From NCBI RefSeq assembly GCF_036507355.1, contig NZ_AP027877.1: a stretch of DNA of 64,000 nt; one strand, given 5' to 3'. Made by a program: the position numbers and the translations under genes. Of this stretch, positions 6,062-53,161 are shown piece after piece. The notes beneath the pieces were generated by a model, which was given only the letters and a program-made list of their open reading frames with translations, ran no database searches and had not been told where the DNA came from. The stretch's first letter is position 1. Each line of letters begins with the position of its first letter. This DNA is from Escherichia coli (GTDB lineage Bacteria; Pseudomonadota; Gammaproteobacteria; Enterobacterales; Enterobacteriaceae).

Positions 6062-9000
6062 TTATCTGTTTAGCGTTGCGCGAATAATCGGCCCAATTTT
6101 TTCAAATGCCCCTGGAGAGATAATATCCACATGCGCACAATCCTGACGATAGATATCCAGCTCCGCAATCCACGGCGACCAGGCGCGTTCAGGACTCATA
6201 CCTTCCTGAAGCGTGCGTTCAGCAACAAACAACGTCGCTTTACCGTCAAACGGTACGCTATGAGCAGTCGTCAGCAGGCGCACAGCATCAGCGTAGTTGC
6301 CTTCAATGGTGGTAAACAGCTCCGTTGAAGTACTTCCCTGCTGTGCCGCCAGGAAGGCCTCGCGCTCGCAGTTAATCTCCGCCAGCACTTCCGGGTCCAG
6401 ACCATTAGCTTCTTTTTCCTGCCAGTTTTGCGTTTCTGGCGGCCAGGTATCCAGCAAGCCAAGAAATGCCACCTGTTCGCCACGGGCACGCAGCCGCGCC
6501 GCAATCCCCTGCGCCAGCGTACCGCCCAGCGAATAACCCAGCAGGTAATAAGGGCCGTGCGGTTGTTGCTCAAGTAACGTTGCCAGATGCGCTTCGCAGA
6601 CTTCATCCAGGTTCGTCGCTGTCTGCATGGGGCCATGAGGGCGCGGCGACTGAATGCCGATAATCGACCATAGTGGATCGAGATAACGCGAGAGCACGCT
6701 AAACTGCCAGGCAAAACCGGATGCCGGATGGAAACAAAACAGCGTCGGGCCATTACCTTCACGCAACGGCAGAATGGTTTCGAATCCCATGCGCCGGGAG
6801 CTGTCCTCTTCACCATCAATAATCGTTGCCAGTTTGGCGACGGTTGACGCGACCATCACCTGCCCCGGCGTCACCTGACGGGCAAACTGCCGACTTAACT
6901 GCGCTGCCAGTTTCATTGCCAGTAGCGAATGACCGCCAAGCGCGAAGAAATCAGCATCGGCATCCTGCACGTCACAACCCAGCAACGACGCGAATGCCGC
7001 AGCGATAATCGTTTCACTGCCCGCTTTCGGCGCACGCCCCGGCGTTTGTGCCTTAAGTTCAGGCAACGGTAAGGCTTTGCGATCCAGCTTGCCGTTGGCG
7101 CTAAGAGGTAACTGTGGAAGTTGCAGCAGAACGACCGGCACCATATGCGGCGGCAATGTTTCGCGAAGCTGTGCCTGTAATGCGCTGGTATCCAACGGCA
7201 GACCTGATTGCGACACCAGATAGCCCACCAACTGACGCGCATCACCACCGGTGGCTGCCGCCTGGTTAATCACACAGGCGTGGGTAACGGCTTGTTCGAC
7301 ATCCGGCAGCGCCTGCATCACGCGATCGATTTCGCCCAGTTCGATACGCTGCCCGCGAATTTTTAGCTGATCGTCACTGCGCCCGAGGTACTCCACCGCG
7401 CCGTTATCCAGCCAGCGGGCAACGTCTCCGGTACGATACATCCGTTCACCTGGGGCAAAAGGATCGGCAATAAAACGGCTGGCGGTCAGATCGGGTCTTC
7501 CAAGATACCCCTGCGCCAGTTGAATGCCGGTGAGATAGAGATCACCCGCCACACCCGGCGGCACCGGATGCATCATCGCATCAAGAATACGCAGACCCGT
7601 ATTCCACACCGGATAACCAATCGGCACACTGCTGCCGCGCACCTGTGCCAGTTCCTCGCCAAAAGCCGGATACCAGCTCACATCTACCGCCGCTTCCGTC
7701 GGGCCATATAGATTATGCAACGGCGCGCCCGTTAACTGTTGCCATTCGCGGCATAAATCAGCCGGTAAGGCCTCACCACTACAGAAAACCTGTTTCAACG
7801 TCGCGCAATTCTGGCGAGCGGTTTGCGGAGTCAGCGATGCAACAAATGCCGCCAGCATCGACGGCACAAAGTGCGTGGTCGTTACGCCATATTCGGCAAA
7901 GAATTGCTGCATAGCGAGCGGGTCGCGGTGCGCTTCCGGTTCAGCCATCACTAGTTTAGCCCCGGCAATAAACGGCCAGAAAAACTCCCACACCGAGACA
8001 TCAAAACTGCACGGCGTTTTTTGGGCAACGACATCTTCGCCTGTAAGCGGGTAGTGATTTTGCATCCATAACAGGCGGTTAACGATAGCCGTCTGCCCGA
8101 CCATTACCCCTTTCGGCCTGCCGGTGGAACCGGAGGTAAAGATGATATAAGCCGTGTGGTGCGGTTGTGAAAGTTGCAGCGGTGCACTGCCCTGCGGTGT
8201 AAGCGGGGCGTTATAGCAAAGGCTGGTTAAATCTGGAACATCGGCAAAGCGCGGCAGTTGATCGTCGGTGGTGATTAACAGCGACGGACGCGCATCTTCC
8301 AGCATCATTTTCAGGCGATCGTCCGGATAGCCGGTATCCAGCGGTAACCAGGCCGCACCAGCTTCAACAATTGCATGTAGCGCCAGAGTCAAAAATACCG
8401 AGCGCGGTAGCGCCACCGCCACGCTGTCGCCAGGTTTAACGCCGCGCTCACGCAGCAGATTCGCCAGCGCCACCACCTGCTCGCGCATTTCCCGATAGCT
8501 GAACTGGTAACGCGCATCTGCCAGCGCCGGAGCATCCGGTGTTTTTGCCGCTTGTTCTGCCACCAGCGCGCTAAGCGTGGTTTCTGGAATCTCAACCTGA
8601 GTGGCGTTGATCTGCGCCAACTGCGCATATTCACCTGGCAGCATAATATCGACATCGCCGCACAACAGCGCCGGATCCGCGGCTAATTGGGCGATCAGCA
8701 TTTTCAGGCGTTCAGCATGCTGGATTAACGTTGGCTCATCGTAACGCTGTTTATTGGCGAGGATCTCAATACTCAAATCACCGTGTTCATCCGGGAACAG
8801 GGCCAGTTCAAGGTCATTAACCGGACCGGTTGCCAGGGTATGGGTTTGCGCCTCAACATCAAGAATATCCAGTTGGTAATCAAATACCTTGATATTGAGT
8901 ACCGGACCAAACAGCGGTTCATCACCTGCCGCTCGCCCGCTGTCACGGACAATTTGTTCGGCATCGTAACGTTGATGGCGACGCATTTTTTTCAGTTGAG

Positions 9001-13883: not shown

Positions 13884-13984
13884 ATGCCGGATGCGGCGTG
13901 AACGCCTTATCCGGCCTACAAAAATCTTGCCAATTCAATATATTGCAGGACCATGTAGGCCTGATAAGCGTAGCGCATCAGGCA
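13884..13984. repeat. REP/BIME element (two inverted REP palindromes) between fepA and entD
   Basis: gccggatgcggcgtgaacgccttatccggcctaca and tgtaggcctgataagcgtagcgcatcaggc are canonical REP sequences in opposite orientation. Confidence 0.8.
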
Positions 13985-14661: not shown

Positions 14662-15130
14662 TCGCCCGCAGCCATCACTGACTGCGGGCGAAAGTGTAAA
14701 GCAGGTGCCTTACCACTCTGACCTGACAACCGGATATGCGGGGATTGCTCCCCGCACAACGGCTACTTCTTCGGTTCGTAAGCGAGAACAGCCTTAAACT
14801 CAATATTACGTTCCTTTACGGTGAACTCACACAGCGAGTCTCCGACCAGAAGCGTAAATCCCAGCACCGTCAAACACAGCACTATGACTGCCACAAGGGC
14901 ATATTTCGTCAGCATGTTTATATTGCCTCCATGCGAAGAAGGGACTACCATCCGAGTTGTTGAGGCTCGGAGTGGCAGCCCCAGGATTGATAGAAATATC
15001 TCCTGGGGCTTCATCTTTCCAGACCTCAGAGTTAACCTGAAACCGGAAAGCTTCAGGCACCCGCCGTTATCTTACCCTTCCTTAGCAAAATAGCTGTTTA
15101 TTTATACAGTGAATCCTGTTTCGGACTTCT
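14662..15130 (-). other. hokE-like type I toxin-antitoxin locus, copy 1 (repeat unit)
   Basis: About 470-bp unit containing a Hok toxin ORF, upstream mok-like leader and a terminal inverted repeat (cgcccgcag...ctgcgggcg); repeated with 503-bp period at 15165-15632. Confidence 0.8.
14763..14915 (-). CDS. hokE: Hok-family membrane toxin (HokE-like), copy 1
   Basis: 50-aa peptide [50 protein letters not shown], typical Hok/Gef toxin with one transmembrane helix. Confidence 0.85.
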
Positions 15131-15164: not shown

Positions 15165-15632
15165 TCGCCCGCAGCCATCACTGACCGCGGGCGAAAGTGT
15201 AAAGCAGGTGCCTTACCATCCTGACCTGACAACCGGATATGCGGGGATTACTCCCCGCACAACGGCTACTTCTTCGGTTCGTAAGCGAGAACAGCCCTGA
15301 ACTCAATATTACGTTCCTTCACCGTAAACTCACACAGCGAGTCTCCGACCAGAAGCGTAAATCCCAGTACCGTCAAACACAGCACTATGACTGCCACAAG
15401 GGCATATTTCGTCAGCATGTTTATATTGCCTCCATGCGAAGAAGGAACTACCATCCAAATTGTCTGGTTTGGAGTGGCAGCCCCAGGGTTGATAGAAATA
15501 TCTCCTGGGGCTTCATCTTTCCAGACCTCAGAGTAAACCTGAAACCGGAAAGCTTCAGGCACCCGCCGTTATCTTACCTTTGCTTAGCAAAATAGCTGTT
15601 TATTTATACAGTAAGTCCTGTTTCGGACTTCT
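15165..15632 (-). other. hokE-like type I toxin-antitoxin locus, copy 2 (repeat unit)
   Basis: Second unit, roughly 95% identical to copy 1 with scattered substitutions and a 1-nt indel in the leader. Confidence 0.8.
15266..15418 (-). CDS. Hok-family membrane toxin (HokE-like), copy 2
   Basis: 50-aa peptide identical to copy 1 except K41R (…[14 protein letters not shown]). Confidence 0.85.
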
Positions 15633-21370: not shown

Positions 21371-24300
21371 TTATTTCCGTACCCGATGTCGGTGCAGCCA
21401 CATCAGCTTATACGCCGCCGGGATAATAAACAGCGACAGCAAAGGCGCGGTGATCATGCCGCCAATCATCGGCGCGGCAATCCGGCTCATCACCTCTGAC
21501 CCTGCTCCTGTTCCCCACAGAATCGGCAGCAGACCAGCGATAATCACCGCCACCGTCATCGCTTTCGGGCGCACGCGCAGTACCGCGCCGTGATACAACG
21601 CCTCATCCAGCTTCTGCTCGCTGAATGTTTGCGGATTATTCAACGACGGCTCGGCCTCTATGGCGTGACGTAAATACATCAGCATCACCACGCCAAATTC
21701 GGCGGCGACCCCGGCGAGGGCGATAAAGCCAGTGCCCGTCGCCACAGAAAGATGAAAGCCCATCCACCACAGCAACCAGATGCCGCCCACCAGCGCAAAC
21801 GGTACGCTGCTGATAATCAGCAACGCTTCGCCCACCCGACGGAATGCCAGATACAACAGCACGAAGATGATCATCAACGTCATCGGCACCATGAGTTTCA
21901 GCTTATGGTTGGCGCGCTCCAGTAGCTCGAACTGCCCGGAGAACGCCACGCTGGTGCCCGGTTTTAACTGCACTTTTTCAGCTATCGCTTTTTGCAGATC
22001 GTGAACCACCGACACCATGTCACGATCGCGGGCATCGATATAAATCCAGCTCGTCGGGCGCGCATTCTCGGTTTTCAGCATCGACGGTCCGGTAGAGACG
22101 TTAACGTCGGCCACGTCCGCCAGGGTGATTTGCTGCTTCATCGGCGTCAGGATCGGCAACTGGCGCAGCGCCTGCGGGCTATCGCGCCAGCTTTGCGGAT
22201 AACGCAGATTAATGGGATAACGGGCAATTCCTTCCACCATTTCGCCAACCATCGCCCCGCCCACCGCAGATGTCACAAACAATTGCACATCCGCCACCGT
22301 CATACCGTAACGCGCGGCTTTTTCACGGTTAATCTCAACGTTGATATAGCGCCCACCTTCCAGACGCTCGGCAAGCGCAGAAGCCACGCCTGGCACCGTT
22401 CGCGCCACTTCTTCAATTTGCTCCGCCATCGCGTCGATATCCGCCAGCACAGTGCCGGAAACTTTAATGCCGATGGGGCTTTTAATGCCGGTTGAGAGCA
22501 TATCGATACGGTTACGAATTGGCGGCACCCACAGATTCGCCAGCCCCGGCAGACGCACGGTGTTATCCAGTTCCTCAATGATTTTGTCCATCGTCATGCC
22601 TGGCCGCCACTGATCCTGTGGCTTAAGCTGAATGGTCGTTTCAACCATCTCCAGCGGAGCAGAATCGGTGGCGGTTTCCGCTTTCCCGGTTTTGCCAAAT
22701 ACCCGCGCCACTTCAGGTACGCTCATAATCAGCTTGTCGGTTTTTTGCAGCATACTCGCCGCCTCTGCTGCGGAAATCCCCGGCAGCGTCGATGGCATAT
22801 ACAACAAGTCGCCTTCATTGATCTGCGGTAAAAATTCCCCGCCAACTTTATTGAGCGGCCAGAGAACCGTCAGCACCGAAAGCGCTGCCACCAGCAGCGT
22901 GGTTTTCGGCCAGTGCAGTACTTTCAGCAATAGCGGATGATAAACACGAATCAAAAAGCGATTGAGCGGGTTACTGCTTTCCGGCGGAATTTTGCCACGG
23001 ATCCAGTAACCCATCAGGATAGGGATCACCACGATCGCCAGCAGCGCCGCGCCCGCCATCGCATACGTTTTGGTGAACGCCAGCGGGCCAAACAGACGCC
23101 CTTCCTGCCCTTCCAGGGTGAAGATCGGGATAAACGACAGTGTGATAATCAGCAGACTGATAAACAACGCCGGTCCCACTTCAACAGACGCATCGGTAAT
23201 CACCTGCCAGCGCGTTTTATTATCCAGCGTGGCGTCAGGATGCTGGTGCTGCCACTCTTCCAGCCGTTTATGCGCATTCTCGATCATGACGATAGCGGCA
23301 TCGACCATCGCCCCGACGGCAATCGCAATACCGCCCAGCGACATAATATTGGCATTCAGCCCCTGGAAGTGCATGACAATAAAAGCAATACACAACCCCA
23401 GCGGCAACGAAATAATCGCCACCAGCGCCGAGCGCACATGCCAGAGAAACAGCGCACAGACTACCGCCACCACAATAAACTCTTCCAGCAACTTGCCGCT
23501 GAGGTTGTCGATGGCCCGGTCAATGAGCTGGCTGCGATCGTATGTTGTAACTATCTCCACGCCTTCCGGCAGACTACTTTTCAGCGTTTCCAGTTTGTCC
23601 TTCACGGCGGCGATCACTTCTCGGGCGTTTTTGCCGGAGCGCAGGATCACCACCCCGCCCGCAACTTCGCCTTCGCCGTTCAGTTCGGCAATGCCCCGGC
23701 GCATCTCCGGGCCAACCTGGACCTTCGCAACATCACGCAGATAAACGGGCACGCCATTTTCACTGGCTTTTAAAACGATGTGATTAAAGTCGTCGAGCGT
23801 TTGCAGATAGCCGCTGGCGCGCACCATATATTCCGCTTCCGCCAGTTCGATCGACGAACCGCCCGCTTCCTGGTTTGAAGCATCCAGCGCATTTTTCACT
23901 TCGCCGAGACTGATGCCATACTGCGCCAGGCGCTGAGGATCGATAACCACCTGATACTCTTTCACCACACCGCCCACCGACGCCACTTCCGCAACGTCAG
24001 GGATGGTTTTTAGCTCATATTTGAGAAACCAGTCCTGCAATGAGCGTAAATCGGCCAGATCGTGCTTACCGCTGCGATCCACCAATGCATATTCATAGAT
24101 CCAGCCAACACCCGTGGCATCTGGCCCCAGCTCGGCGCTGACTCCCGCAGGCAGCTTACCCTGTACCTGGTTGAGGTACTCCAGCACCCGCGAGCGCGCC
24201 CAGTACGGATCGGTGCCATCTTCGAAAATGACATACACATAAGAGTCGCCAAACTGCGAGAAACCACGCACAGTCTTCGCGCCAGGCACCGACAACATGG

Positions 24301-24514
24301 TGGTAGTTAGCGGATAAGTCACCTGATTTTCAACGATTTGCGGTGCCTGACCGGGATAGCTGGTTTTAATAATCACCTGCACATCGGAGAGATCCGGCAG
24401 CGCATCCACTGGCGTATTAATGATGGTCCAGGTGCCCCAGATACTTAGAAACAACGCGCCCATCAGCACCAAAAAACGGTTCGCCACCGAGCGACGAATA
24501 ATCCATTCAATCAT
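21371..24514 (-). CDS. cusA: RND copper/silver efflux pump CusA
   Basis: 1047-aa RND transporter; N-terminal [23 protein letters not shown]. Confidence 0.97.
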
Positions 24515-24525
24515 TGGTTATTCCC

Positions 24526-25749
24526 TCAATGCGCATGGGTAGCACTTTCAGAGCGCATCCGCTCCAGTGCGCCAGAAATATTGGCTTCGGAATCAATCAG
24601 GAACAGGCCGCTGGAAACCACCTTTTCACCTTCCGCCAGACCAGAGCGTAATGCGGTGACACCTTGCGATGCCTGGAAAACGGCAACGCGTTTTGGTACA
24701 AAGCGCCCGTCGGCATCAACGGTAATCACCCGCTGTTCGCTGCCGGTATCAATCAGCGCTTGTGACGGAATGAGCAGCATCGGTTCGCTGGCGGTATTGA
24801 GTTGCAACCAGGCGTTCATTCCCGGTTTTAGCGCCTCGTCGGCGTTGTCGACTTCCAGACGCAGCTGCAGCGTGCGGGTCGCGGCATCCACGCCAGGTAG
24901 TAGCGTCCATTTGCGGATGGTGAGTGTTTTATCAGGTCGCGCCGGAACGGTGAGCGTAAACTGCGAGGCATCTTTCACCAGCCAGGCGATGGACTCCGGG
25001 ATCGCAGCAGTGACCCACACCGGGTCCATACCCTGAATTTTCGCTACCACGTTATCTTTGGCGATATTCATTCCCGCGCGCAGATCAAACGCGGTGATCA
25101 CGCCATCAATGGGTGCTTTGAGCGTAAAGCGAGTCTGGATTTTTTGCGTGGCGATCAGGCGGCGAATATCCGCCTCCGGCATTCCCGCCAGTCGCAGCCG
25201 CTCAAGAATGCCTTCAGTCTGGGTCGCCGTACCGCCGGTTTCGCGCAGCAGTAAATACTCACTCTGCGCTTCCACCCAGTCAGGAATGGTCAGGTCGAGA
25301 AGCGGTGCGCCCTTTTGTACTTTATCGCCCACGGTAAGCGGATACACCTTGTCGATAAACCCGGCAGCGCGAGCCTGCACAATGGCATACTGATACTCGT
25401 TGTAACTGACATTCGCCGGGAAACTCTGGGCAAAAGTCAGCGGTCCGCGCGTGACGGTAGCCGTTTTCACCCCCAGATTCTGCGTCTGAGTCGGGTCAAT
25501 GCGCACACCAGACGCAGAACTCTCTTCATCGGCATATTTCGGCACCAGATCCATATCCATAAACGGCGATTTACCTGGTTTATCGAACCGCGTATTGGGA
25601 TACATCGGGTCGTACCAGAATAAGATTTTACGTTCTGCGGTCGACGTTTTTTCTGCAGGCGGTTCCGCCTTTGCAAACCAGGTAAAACCTGCCGCAGAAA
25701 TAATACCGCCCGCGATCATGCTGCCGATAATAAGCGCGATTTTTTTCAT
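24526..25749 (-). CDS. cusB: Membrane fusion protein CusB
   Basis: 407-aa periplasmic adaptor immediately downstream of cusF and upstream of cusA. Confidence 0.95.
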   Translation of the reverse strand: MKKIALIIGSMIAGGIISAAGFTWFAKAEPPAEKTSTAERKILFWYDPMYPNTRFDKPGKSPFMDMDLVPKYADEESSASGVRIDPTQTQNLGVKTATVTRGPLTFAQSFPANVSYNEYQYAIVQARAAGFIDKVYPLTVGDKVQKGAPLLDLTIPDWVEAQSEYLLLRETGGTATQTEGILERLRLAGMPEADIRRLIATQKIQTRFTLKAPIDGVITAFDLRAGMNIAKDNVVAKIQGMDPVWVTAAIPESIAWLVKDASQFTLTVPARPDKTLTIRKWTLLPGVDAATRTLQLRLEVDNADEALKPGMNAWLQLNTASEPMLLIPSQALIDTGSEQRVITVDADGRFVPKRVAVFQASQGVTALRSGLAEGEKVVSSGLFLIDSEANISGALERMRSESATHAH

Positions 25750-25764
25750 CTCATTAAACCTGGG

Positions 25765-26097
25765 TTACTGGCTGACTTTAATATCCTGTAATAAAGAAAG
25801 GTTGCCCTGCTGGACAAAATTAAACGCCACTTTGTCGCCAGTTTTAATTTCACTCATTTTCGTCTGCGGAGTGATGGTAAAGCGCATGGTCATCTCCGGC
25901 CAGTTCACGGCAGCAATCGGATCGTGATGGATGGTGATTTTTTTGCTTTCCAGATCAACACCTTTTACCACGCCGGTGGCACTAATGACCTGTGGTTGTG
26001 CTTCGCTCATGGTTTCATGATGATGTTCGTTAGCCTGGGCATTAAAGCCAATAACGGTAAACAGACTGAACATTGCGACTTGCAGTGCTTTTTTCAT
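25765..26097 (-). CDS. cusF: Periplasmic copper/silver chaperone CusF
   Basis: 110-aa secreted protein with a His-rich N-terminal region (NEHHHETMSEAQPQVIS) and the Met/Trp metal-site region. Confidence 0.95.
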   Translation of the reverse strand: MKKALQVAMFSLFTVIGFNAQANEHHHETMSEAQPQVISATGVVKGVDLESKKITIHHDPIAAVNWPEMTMRFTITPQTKMSEIKTGDKVAFNFVQQGNLSLLQDIKVSQ

Positions 26098-26120: not shown

Positions 26121-27503
26121 TTATTGCTGCCAACCGCCACCAAGTGCGGTATATAAAGAAATTTCGTTGACCTGACGGGCATAATTCAGGTCAAGTAAGG
26201 TTTGTCGGGTTGCAAATAAAGAACGCTCGGCATCCAGCACTTCCAGATAACTTACCGCGCCGTGCTGATATAATGCCCGCGCCCGTTGCAAAGTAATTTG
26301 CAGCGACGCCAGATAACGCTGCTGGGCGCTGATTTGATCGTTCAGGCTTTGACGTAATGCCAGCGCATCTGCCACTTCTTTAAAGGCGTTCTGGATTTTC
26401 TGTTCATAATTCACTACCGACTGCTGCTGGCGAATTTCGGCGATATCCAGATTGGCCTGGTTGCGTCCGGCATTAAAAATGGGGATCTCAATTTTAGGAA
26501 TAAAATTCCACATCCCGCTGCTGGCGTTAAATAATGACGACAGATCGCTGCTGGCGGTTGATATTCCGCTGGTCAGGCTTATAGATGGGAAAAATGCCGC
26601 GCGTGCGGCCCCAATATTGGCATTAGCCGCCATTAACGCGTGTTCAGCTTCCATAATATCCGGGCGCTGCAATAAGATTTGCGACGACAAGCCCGCCGGT
26701 AATTTAACGCTTTGCAGGCTGTCGCTGTTTACTGTCTGCGCTTGCGGCAGCTTGCCGTAGCTTCCCAATAACAGTTGCAATGCATTATTCGCCTGCGCCA
26801 GTTCCCCCTGACGTTTAGCGATGTCACTGCGGGTACTTTCTATCACCCCGCGAGCCTGTTCCAGCGCCAGAACATTGCTGCTACCGGTCAACAGTTGTTT
26901 TTCGACAAACGCATATGACTGCTGATAATTACGCAGCGTTTCTTCGGCTATTTGCAATTGCGCATACGCCAGTTGCTGATTGAAATAGCTTTGCGCGACA
27001 TTAGAAACCAGCAGAATATGCACCGCGCGCTGAGCTTCCTCAGTGGCTAAATAATTTTGTCGCTCGGCTTCGCTCATGTTCTTTAAGCGCCCGAAAAAAT
27101 CGAGGTCAAAGCTGGCGTTAAGGCCAGTAGAAAACTCCCGCGTCGTGGCTGAATCGCCTTTAAGATTGCCGCTCCAGCTGCCGCTGCCCTCGCCATTGAG
27201 CTGTGGGTAGCGGTCGGCATCGGTCAGACGATATTGCGCCCGTGCCTCCTGCACTTTCAGCGTCGCCATGCGCAAATCCCGGTTATTCACCAGCGCCTCG
27301 CTAATCAGCGTCTTCACCTGATTATCAACAAAAAAGGTGCGCCAGCCCGCGTTCTGATAGTTATCTGCTGCGTTAACGAGGCCGTTCTGGCTGAGTGAGA
27401 ACTGCTGCGGTACGGGCATTGCCGGGCGCTGATAATCCGGTGCCAGTGAACAACCGGTTAGCGCAAGGGCCACACAAAATGGCAGAAGTTTACAAGGAGA
27501 CAT
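26121..27503 (-). CDS. cusC: Outer membrane efflux lipoprotein CusC
   Basis: 460-aa ORF with a lipoprotein signal (LALTGCSL), OMF/TolC-like. Confidence 0.95.
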   Translation of the reverse strand: MSPCKLLPFCVALALTGCSLAPDYQRPAMPVPQQFSLSQNGLVNAADNYQNAGWRTFFVDNQVKTLISEALVNNRDLRMATLKVQEARAQYRLTDADRYPQLNGEGSGSWSGNLKGDSATTREFSTGLNASFDLDFFGRLKNMSEAERQNYLATEEAQRAVHILLVSNVAQSYFNQQLAYAQLQIAEETLRNYQQSYAFVEKQLLTGSSNVLALEQARGVIESTRSDIAKRQGELAQANNALQLLLGSYGKLPQAQTVNSDSLQSVKLPAGLSSQILLQRPDIMEAEHALMAANANIGAARAAFFPSISLTSGISTASSDLSSLFNASSGMWNFIPKIEIPIFNAGRNQANLDIAEIRQQQSVVNYEQKIQNAFKEVADALALRQSLNDQISAQQRYLASLQITLQRARALYQHGAVSYLEVLDAERSLFATRQTLLDLNYARQVNEISLYTALGGGWQQ

Positions 27504-27572
27504 AGGCTCATAATTTCTGGTGATTTTATACCGCCAACTTTACTCGCCAGGCTCTGATTTTCCGGTGACAGG

Positions 27573-27594
27573 AAAATGACAAAATTGTCATTTT
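27573..27594. promoter_or_regulatory. CusR box in the cusC-cusR divergent promoter
   Basis: Perfect palindrome aaaatgacaaaattgtcatttt (AAAATGACAA-NN-TTGTCATTTT) centred in the 156-bp intergenic region. Confidence 0.8.
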
Positions 27595-27659
27595 GCCAAT
27601 AAGCGATTGCCATCTGATCCCGCTACTCTAGAATTGCCCGGGCAACATGCGGAGGAAAT

Positions 27660-28343
27660 ATGAAACTGTTGATTGTCGAAGATGAAAAGAAAACCGGAGA
27701 ATACTTGACCAAAGGGTTAACCGAAGCCGGTTTTGTGGTCGATTTGGCCGACAACGGGCTGAATGGCTACCATCTGGCGATGACCGGTGATTATGATCTG
27801 ATAATCCTCGATATTATGCTGCCGGACGTGAACGGCTGGGATATCGTGCGCATGTTGCGCTCCGCCAATAAAGGGATGCCGATTCTGTTGCTTACCGCGC
27901 TTGGCACCATTGAACATCGCGTCAAGGGGCTGGAGTTGGGGGCAGATGACTACCTGGTGAAACCATTCGCTTTTGCTGAACTACTGGCGCGGGTGCGCAC
28001 TCTCCTGCGGCGCGGGGCGGCGGTGATTATCGAAAGTCAGTTTCAGGTTGCCGATCTGATGGTCGATCTCGTCAGCCGCAAAGTCACCCGCAGCGGCACG
28101 CGCATCACTTTGACCAGTAAAGAGTTTACTCTGCTGGAGTTTTTTCTCCGCCATCAGGGCGAAGTGCTGCCCCGCTCGCTTATCGCCTCGCAGGTATGGG
28201 ACATGAATTTTGACAGCGACACTAACGCCATTGATGTGGCGGTGAAGCGGCTGCGCGGCAAAATCGACAACGACTTTGAGCCGAAGCTGATTCAGACCGT
28301 GCGCGGCGTGGGCTATATGCTTGAGGTACCTGATGGTCAATAA
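27660..28343 (+). CDS. cusR: Copper-responsive response regulator CusR (OmpR family)
   Basis: 227-aa ORF with a receiver domain ([12 protein letters not shown]...[11 protein letters not shown]) and a winged-helix C-terminus. Confidence 0.95.
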
Positions 28344-29775
28344 GCCATTTCAGCGCCCGTTTTCGCTGGCAACCCGCCTGACCTTTTTTATCAGCCTGGC
28401 CACCATCGCGGCGTTTTTCGCCTTTGCATGGATCATGATCCACTCAGTAAAAGTGCATTTTGCCGAGCAGGATATTAATGATTTAAAAGAGATTAGCGCC
28501 ACCCTTGAACGGGTACTAAATCACCCTGACGAAACGCAAGCCCGACGCTTAATGACGCTGGAAGATATCGTCAGTGGTTATTCCAACGTGTTGATTTCCC
28601 TGGCAGATAGCCACGGCAAAACGGTGTATCACTCCCCCGGTGCGCCTGATATCCGCGAGTTTGCACGTGATGCCATACCCGATAAAGACGCGCGGGGTGG
28701 CGAGGTGTATCTCCTTTCCGGCCCGACGATTATGATGCCAGGCCACGGTCACGGGCATATGGAACACAGCAACTGGCGGATGATTAACTTGCCGGTTGGC
28801 CCGTTGGTGGACGGCAAACCGATTTATACGCTATACATCGCGCTGTCGATCGATTTTCATCTTCATTACATAAATGATTTGATGAATAAACTTATTATGA
28901 CCGCATCGGTAATCAGCATCCTGATCGTCTTTATCGTGCTGTTGGCGGTACATAAAGGTCACGCGCCGATCCGCAGCGTCAGCCGTCAAATCCAGAATAT
29001 CACCTCGAAAGATCTCGACGTTCGCCTCGACCCGCAGACCGTGCCCATTGAGCTGGAACAGCTGGTACTGTCGTTCAACCATATGATCGAGCGTATTGAG
29101 GATGTCTTTACCCGCCAGTCCAATTTCTCAGCGGATATCGCTCACGAAATTCGCACGCCGATTACCAATCTCATCACGCAAACGGAAATCGCCCTCAGCC
29201 AGTCTCGCAGCCAGAAGGAGCTGGAAGATGTGCTCTACTCTAATCTCGAAGAGCTGACGCGAATGGCGAAAATGGTCAGCGATATGCTGTTTCTCGCTCA
29301 GGCCGATAACAACCAGCTAATCCCCGAAAAGAAAATGCTCAACCTGGCGGATGAAATCGGCAAAGTGTTCGATTTTTTCGAGGCGTTAGCGGAAGATCGC
29401 GGCGTGGAGTTGCGATTTGTTGGCGACGAGTGCCAGGTTGCGGGCGATCCGCTGATGCTGCGTCGGGCGTTAAGCAACCTGCTTTCGAACGCCCTGCGTT
29501 ATACGCCACCCGGAGAGGCTATTGTAGTACGCTGCCAGACGGTCGATCATCTGGTGCAAGTTATCGTCGAAAACCCCGGTACGCCCATTGCGCCCGAGCA
29601 CTTACCGCGATTGTTTGACCGTTTCTACCGCGTTGACCCCTCCCGCCAACGAAAAGGCGAAGGTAGCGGCATTGGGCTGGCGATAGTGAAATCGATTGTT
29701 GTCGCACATAAAGGCACGGTTGCAGTAACGTCAGATGCGCGGGGAACAAGATTTGTTATCACATTACCCGCTTAA
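28333..29775 (+). CDS. cusS: Copper/silver sensor histidine kinase CusS
   Basis: 480 aa from the ATG at 28333, overlapping the cusR 3' end; H-box ([10 protein letters not shown]) and ATPase motifs present. Confidence 0.95.
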
Positions 29776-29924
29776 TCCTTCAGCAAACGGCAACTTTTAT
29801 AACCAGTGTAAAAATAACGTGCCGCAATAGTCATACCTATTAATGGTAAAAAGCTGTCACAATTCATAAAAAACCTTAATATACGCCACCCTAAACATAA
29901 CCAGCGTTAATGTAAGGTTTTTGT

Positions 29925-36194: not shown

Positions 36195-36956
36195 ATGCAA
36201 TTGAGCAGCAGTGAACCTTGCGTGGTGATCCTGACCGAAAAAGAGGTAGAGGTAAGCGTCAATAACCATGCTACGTTTACCCTTCCGAAAAACTACCTGG
36301 CCGCCTTCGCGTGCAACAATAACGTCATTGAACTCTCAACGTTAAATCACGTATTAATCACCCACATCAACCGTAACATCATCAACGATTATCTGTTGTT
36401 TTTAAATAAGAACTTAACCTGTGTAAAGCCCTGGTCGCGGCTGGCTACCCCGGTTATCGCTTGTCATAGCCGTACACCGGAAGTGTTCCGGCTAGCCGCC
36501 AACCACAGCAAGCAGCAACCTAGCAAACCCTGCGAAGCGGAGTTGACGCGCGCATTGCTTTTTACCGTATTGTCTAACTTTCTTGAGCAATCGCGGTTTA
36601 TTGCCCTACTGATGTATATCTTACGCAGCAGCGTCCGCGACAGCGTCTGCCGCATTATTCAAAGCGATATTCAGCATTACTGGAATCTGCGAATTGTCGC
36701 CAGTTCGCTATGTTTAAGCCCCAGCCTGCTCAAAAAGAAATTAAAAAACGAAAATACCAGCTATAGCCAGATTGTCACAGAGTGTCGTATGCGTTACGCC
36801 GTACAGATGTTATTGATGGATAACAAAAATATCACTCAGGTGGCGCAATTATGTGGCTATAGCAGCACGTCGTACTTTATCTCTGTTTTTAAGGCGTTTT
36901 ACGGCCTGACACCGTTGAATTATCTCGCCAAACAGCGACAAAAAGTGATGTGGTGA
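36195..36956 (+). CDS. envY: AraC-family transcriptional regulator EnvY
   Basis: 253-aa ORF with a C-terminal AraC-type HTH (…ITQVAQLCGYSSTSYFISVFKAFYGLTP…). Confidence 0.9.
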   Translation: MQLSSSEPCVVILTEKEVEVSVNNHATFTLPKNYLAAFACNNNVIELSTLNHVLITHINRNIINDYLLFLNKNLTCVKPWSRLATPVIACHSRTPEVFRLAANHSKQQPSKPCEAELTRALLFTVLSNFLEQSRFIALLMYILRSSVRDSVCRIIQSDIQHYWNLRIVASSLCLSPSLLKKKLKNENTSYSQIVTECRMRYAVQMLLMDNKNITQVAQLCGYSSTSYFISVFKAFYGLTPLNYLAKQRQKVMW

Positions 36957-37001: not shown

Positions 37002-37078
37002 TGGCGCGCCCTGCAGGATTCGAACCTGCGGCCCACGACTTAGAAGGTCGTTGCTCTATCCAACTGAGCTAAGGGCGC
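37002..37078 (-). tRNA. argU: tRNA-Arg (anticodon UCU), argU
   Basis: Reverse complement reads GCGCCCTTAGCTCAGTTGGATAGAGCAACGACCTTCTAAGTCGTGGGCCGCAGGTTCGAATCCTGCAGGGCGCGCCA: cloverleaf with TTCGAATCC T-arm, UCU anticodon and CCA end. Confidence 0.93.
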
Positions 37079-53077: not shown

Positions 53078-53119
53078 ATCATACCACTCGCCTGATTATT
53101 TTTAGCTATGTTGGATTTT

Positions 53120-53147
53120 GCCACGGTTTATACCGTGGCTTTTTTTG
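53120..53147 (+). terminator. Rho-independent terminator of the allDCE operon
   Basis: Hairpin gccacggtttataccgtggc followed by TTTTTTT. Confidence 0.7.
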
Positions 53148-53161
53148 TAGTAAATTCAGGT

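Follow-up and report, generated by a model that had tools for sequence, protein, structure and literature searches.

The 156-bp spacer between the divergent cusC and cusR genes almost certainly holds the known CusR operator of E. coli, a single site from which both the cusCFBA and the cusRS promoters are activated. The operator is already published, conserved and ordinary, and our analysis found no evidence against reading the site as a CusR operator. It lies within a chromosomal copper/silver efflux circuit that is intact in this strain. Below, the window refers to the whole 64-kb stretch of DNA that was analysed, and all positions are those of the window unless another sequence is named.

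Results

Sequence and symmetry of the CusR box

The spacer and the box have the following coordinates:

27504–27659, no strand assigned: cusC–cusR divergent intergenic region, 156 bp, with the box centre 2 bp off its midpoint
27573–27594, no strand assigned: CusR box AAAATGACAA-AA-TTGTCATTTT, two perfect 10-nt inverted arms with a symmetry centre at 27583.5

On the plus strand of the window, the 22-mer at 27573–27594 reads AAAATGACAAAATTGTCATTTT. A repeat finder scored the arms at 27573–27582 and 27585–27594 as 100% complementary, and the central AA (27583–27584) is not self-complementary. The perfect 22-bp palindrome of the preliminary description is thus not what the DNA contains; the element has a 10+2+10 form that differs from its own reverse complement at two positions, and this is also the form in which the published CusR consensus is written. 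The identification as a CusR box, on the other hand, stands, with a match at 20 of the 20 specified bases of the published consensus AAAATGACAAnnTTGTCATTTT and with CusR gSELEX and ChIP on this spacer already in print. According to PMC11195947, which cites Yamamoto & Ishihama 2005, the E. coli CusR site is the palindrome AAAATGACAAnnTTGTCATTTT between cusRS and cusC(F)BA. The box also contains a hexamer inverted repeat with 6-4-6 spacing, ATGACA-AAAT-TGTCAT, whose halves are separated by 4 bp (27576–27591). No match to the 22-mer with up to three mismatches arose in 100 dinucleotide-preserving shuffles of the window, the 64-kb window has no second copy of the 22-mer, and the 16-nt core ATGACAANNTTGTCAT has no further site with up to two mismatches in the same 64 kb.

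The K-12 CusR box AAAATGACAAnnTTGTCATTTT, which PMC11195947 credits to Yamamoto & Ishihama 2005, is the identical 22-mer, in a spacer of the same 156-bp length with the same flanking genes. Relative to a sampled K-12-like strain, the window differs by two spacer SNPs, both outside the box: G for A at 27572 and A for G at 27530. The latter, near the putative cusC start, creates TATAAA on the minus strand.

The cus genes

The ORF map places cusA, cusB, cusF and cusC on the minus strand and cusR and cusS on the plus strand, in the canonical gene order, with 27504–27659 as the spacer between cusC and cusR:

21371–24514, minus strand: cusA, RND permease, 1047 aa (TIGR00914, 1666.8 bits, cut-off 701)
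24526–25749, minus strand: cusB, periplasmic adaptor, 407 aa (NF007303, 861.6 bits, cut-off 390)
25765–26097, minus strand: cusF, periplasmic metallochaperone, 110 aa (NF007348, 206 bits, cut-off 143)
26121–27503, minus strand: cusC, outer-membrane channel, 460 aa, full length (NF007347, 907.1 bits, cut-off 598)
27660–28343, plus strand: cusR, OmpR/PhoB-family response regulator, 227 aa (NF007346 equivalog, 507.9 bits, cut-off 420)
28333–29775, plus strand: cusS, Cu(I)/Ag(I) sensor histidine kinase, 480 aa (NF007345, 981.9 bits, cut-off 423)

All six ORFs are full length, and each exceeds its NCBIfam curated cut-off with essentially end-to-end profile coverage. CusR has the Pfam domains Response_reg and Trans_reg_C (receiver and winged helix), and CusS has a CusS sensor domain followed by HAMP, HisKA and HATPase_c. 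The translations retain D51 of CusR and H271 of CusS, the residues with described roles in the phosphorelay (PMC12589874). Because the genes are full length and equivalog-level, with canonical domains and both phosphorelay residues present, we conclude that the circuit is intact, as had been proposed from the first inspection of the DNA. The divergent arrangement proposed at that stage, with the box between cusC (26121–27503) and cusR (27660–28343), was likewise recovered. A further claim, that the cusR stop overlaps the cusS start, was right for the reading frames, which share 11 nt (ATGGTCAATAA), but not for the codons themselves, which share no bases: the cusS ATG (28333–28335) lies 5 nt ahead of the cusR TAA (28341–28343). 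The 11-nt overlap is also present in the RefSeq annotation of a strain with an identical spacer, where RefSeq labels the flanking genes cusC and cusR. Over 361 nt around the spacer, the window is 100% identical to E. coli O157:H7 PV15-279.

Several features elsewhere in the window were recorded along the way. At 29776–29924, the window runs from cusS straight on to nfrB. In the O157:H7 genome with the 100% identical spacer, cusS and nfrB are separated by an island of about 11 kb carrying vgrG, rhs, a toxin-domain gene and ISAs1; the adjacency of the two genes in the window therefore indicates that it does not have the arrangement of that O157:H7 lineage. Two tandem matches to the sok antitoxin RNA (Rfam RF01794), at 14907–15062 (86.5 bits) and 15410–15564 (80.2 bits), imply two copies of the hokE/sok type I toxin-antitoxin system, and the compared O157:H7 record likewise annotates two hokE genes. 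A tRNA-Arg(TCT) gene at 37002–37078 follows envY (about 36195–36956) and precedes fimZ/sfm; it is presumably argU, which prophage DLP12 uses as its attachment site in K-12. The window has neither a prophage nor an ompT/appY segment at this tRNA. Rfam also matched two sRNA families, STnc480 at 53084–53150 (87.1 bits) and ES036 at 13921–13962 (40.5 bits, just above the gathering score).

Conservation of the box within E. coli and beyond

Of 5426 complete E. coli genomes, 5335 contain the cusC–cusR spacer. Across the 44 nt centred on the box, 3335 genomes agree fully with the window and the other 1999 show one or two mismatches; put by position, the window's sequence at 27562–27605 is common to 3335 of 5334 genomes, whereas that at 27509–27552 is common to only 1070 of 5334. 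In the four variant E. coli genomes that we examined, the box is unchanged and the nearest change is at 27572, 1 nt outside it.

A close-orthologue alignment (A1) comprised Citrobacter, Klebsiella, the plasmid sil system and E. coli strains. The box is invariant in the five E. coli sampled there, and it reads AAAATGACAAAACTGTCATTTT in Citrobacter werkmanii, AAAATGACAAAGCTGTCATTTT in the chromosomal cus locus of Klebsiella pneumoniae and ATAATGACAATGTTGTCATTTT in the silC–silR spacer of an IncHI2 Salmonella plasmid. Thus, Citrobacter, Klebsiella and plasmid sil show at most one change in the box, with the rest of the spacer mostly diverged. The plasmid site, part of a mobile paralogue and not of the chromosomal locus, departs from the cus box by a single arm mismatch and in its centre; it too lies 84 nt from the regulator start and shares the upstream GTGAC and ACTTTA blocks. 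In the piece of this plasmid that we used (CP082444.1), no ORF of at least 100 aa was found at the expected silR start downstream of the sil box (6108–6800 of the piece), and its sequence ATGAAAATATTAATCGTGAAGACG looks as if silR carries a frameshift or an assembly error. A search of plasmids returned mostly chromosomes filed as plasmids.

To this we added a distant set of 79 scannable upstream regions, drawn from at least 80 CusR/CopR loci identified by a scan of bacterial genomes with CusR; beta- and gamma-proteobacteria dominate it, with one enterobacterial locus among the matches listed. In 22 of the 79 regions among the matches listed, the 400 nt preceding the regulator contain the 16-nt core with up to three mismatches, against about 1% of shuffled controls. 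The distance from the box to the start codon is usually 70–100 nt in these distant loci, again among the matches listed, and is 84 nt in the window. A lack of the motif in orthologous regions had been named in advance as an outcome that would speak against the site; instead, Citrobacter, Klebsiella, plasmid sil and many distant CusR/CopR loci all retain the box.

A frequent distant variant, ATTACAA..TTGTAAT, shows the G/T alternation by which the cus and hiuH boxes of E. coli differ. The hiuH–hprR box recognized by HprR and CusR, CATTACAAAATTGTAATG (PMC9302797), is likewise a 6-4-6 inverted repeat (ATKACA-N4-TGTMAT) and, like the cus box, separates a regulator operon from a divergent target, but the third position of its half-sites is T/A, against G/C in the cus box. 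The hiuH–hprR box is situated outside the window and has a different binding affinity (PMC8249747). The AgrR box of Cupriavidus metallidurans, ATTACA-N4 (PMC7380067), and the CopR sites of Pseudomonas (PMC12428095) have the half-site ATTACA in place of the ATGACA of cus, and the plasmid pcoE promoter carries a related copper box, TGACAAnnTTGTCAT (PMC11195947).

Putative promoters and a third TGACA half-site

Three further features of the spacer bear on how the shared site may be used:

27537–27542, minus strand: putative cusC −10 element, TAAAGT, from a phylogenetic footprint in which ACTTTA is invariant in E. coli, Citrobacter, Klebsiella and plasmid sil
27566–27570, plus strand: third TGACA half-site, on the cusC side, repeating the TGACA of the left arm (27577–27581) in direct orientation at a distance of 11 bp
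27607–27634, plus strand: putative cusR promoter, −35 TTGCCA (27607–27612), 16-nt spacer and −10 TAGAAT (27629–27634), matching the consensus at 10 of 12 positions

The TTGCCA/TAGAAT pair is the only sigma-70-like site found within 27400–27760, and the TTG of its −35 and the TA.AAT of its −10 are invariant in A1. From this pair, cusR transcription is predicted to start near 27641, which would put the box centre near −57. On the cusC side, the conserved TAAAGT points to a start near 27530 and a box centre near −53.5, and an A/T-rich hexamer occurs at the equivalent −10 offset in distant loci. No TTGACA-like hexamer was found 16–18 bp upstream of the putative cusC −10, which leaves this promoter with no recognizable −35. 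We also considered TATAAA/TAAAAT at 27523–27530 as the cusC −10 and rejected it, as it is unconserved beyond E. coli whereas TAAAGT at 27537–27542 is invariant.

The third TGACA would fall at about −36 to −40 of the putative cusC promoter, the usual place of a −35. GTGAC at 27565–27569 does not vary among the E. coli, Citrobacter, Klebsiella and plasmid sil sequences of A1, and in 24 box-bearing CusR/CopR loci among the matches listed the segment 'cTGACag' is 70–90% conserved at the equal offset. Flanking half-sites of a comparable kind have been described for AgrR (PMC7380067) and CopR (PMC12428095), and Pseudomonas putida CopR footprints contain multiple TGACA motifs (PMC12428095); TGACA 27566–27570 is the counterpart in cus of this flanking repeat. 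The AgrR and Pseudomonas CopR sites come with footprint and mutant evidence; for the cus half-site, the evidence is its conservation. Since similar repeats are published for AgrR and CopR, the third half-site is, by analogy, typical of the family and not something new, although the accessible literature did not set it out explicitly for E. coli cus. The cusC half of the spacer contains two more repeats, both of which may be due to chance: a 20-nt direct repeat (27504–27523 and 27549–27568), whose copies are 80% identical and lie 45 bp from each other, and an imperfect inverted repeat of 10 nt, ATTTTCCGGT/ACAGGAAAAT (27557–27577), that overlaps the third half-site.

Discussion

Our results place a characterized operator in its expected setting, and published work supplies most of its biology. 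Binding by CusR and HprR and induction by copper and silver are taken here, by analogy, from studies of K-12, where the box sequence is identical. In a ChIP study under copper (bioRxiv 10.1101/2020.08.17.251918), CusR gave one peak in the whole chromosome, in the cusC–cusR spacer, and a gSELEX study reports a single peak in the same spacer for unphosphorylated CusR (PMC8249747). Phosphorylated CusR activates both PcusC and PcusR (PMC10920338, PMC11522558), and a weak PcusC has been reported for K-12 (PMC11522558). Because unphosphorylated CusR also binds, and because PMC8249747 suggests that it represses when no inducer is present, the CusR site may not be purely an activator site.

These observations fit a simple sequence of events. 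Periplasmic Cu(I) or Ag(I) would activate CusS, which would autophosphorylate on H271 and pass the phosphate to D51 of CusR. A CusR dimer would then occupy the inverted TGACA-N4-TGTCA at 27577–27590, whose pentamers lie at 27577–27581 and 27586–27590, with the A/T arms extending its contacts to 27573–27594. From this one central site, CusR would activate cusCFBA leftwards, supplying the efflux pump and the CusF chaperone, and cusRS rightwards, in a positive autoregulatory loop. The paralogue HprR (YedW) would recognize the same box and so link the locus to peroxide/HOCl signalling.

This last step raises the question of whether the box is mainly an HprR site in a locus that responds chiefly to H2O2 or HOCl. 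The relationship between the two regulators is close: the next-best NCBIfam equivalog for CusR is the HprR model (277.6 bits, below its cut-off of 353), and PMC8249747 reports that the single strongest HprR gSELEX peak is in the cusR–cusC spacer, with the same recognition sequence as CusR. However, HprR's own locus has the ATTACAA..TTGTAAT variant (PMC9302797), whereas the cus site is the ATGACAA variant and adjoins cusR, and the cus spacer held the sole CusR ChIP peak under copper. In K-12, according to the cited literature, deletion of cusR abolishes copper induction and deletion of hprR leaves it intact. Roles for HprR and CusR can coexist, the one as an addition to the other and not a replacement, and we regard a mainly HprR-directed box as very unlikely.

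Even less probable, to the point of being negligible, is that the element is a chance A/T-rich inverted repeat, or a DNA or RNA hairpin (a terminator or cruciform) to which no protein binds. The single-stranded DNA does fold somewhat better than shuffled sequences (z = −2.6), but this is expected of any inverted repeat. No terminator-like site was found in 27400–27760 and no Rfam family matched at the position of the box; the stem, A/T-rich around a 2-nt centre, is not followed by a T-run, and the box lies upstream of both putative promoters and so is probably not transcribed. The absence of the 22-mer from the shuffles, together with its conservation across genera despite diverged flanks, excludes a chance palindrome, and protein binding to the box is already published.

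Within the CusR operator, the two promoters may nevertheless be served differently. The in-phase third TGACA at 27566–27570 might help to recruit RNA polymerase to the putative cusC promoter, which lacks a −35. We tentatively suggest, at somewhat below even confidence, that the E. coli operator is tripartite: the third TGACA would make the shared site asymmetric, an extra CusR protomer or a shifted dimer would drive cusCFBA in a PhoB-like (class II) manner, and cusRS, with its own TTGCCA −35, would be activated from further upstream. We did not come across this proposal for E. coli cus in the accessible literature, but for AgrR and CopR the principle has been published.

As a discovery, a characterized operator in a heavily studied locus has limited value, but it is a useful positive control, in that a real regulatory site was recognized from raw sequence. 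The third half-site and the promoter geometry offer only a slightly new angle, which could help in designing copper biosensors based on CusRS. If the tripartite arrangement is real, it could explain unequal strengths or thresholds of the two divergent cus promoters.
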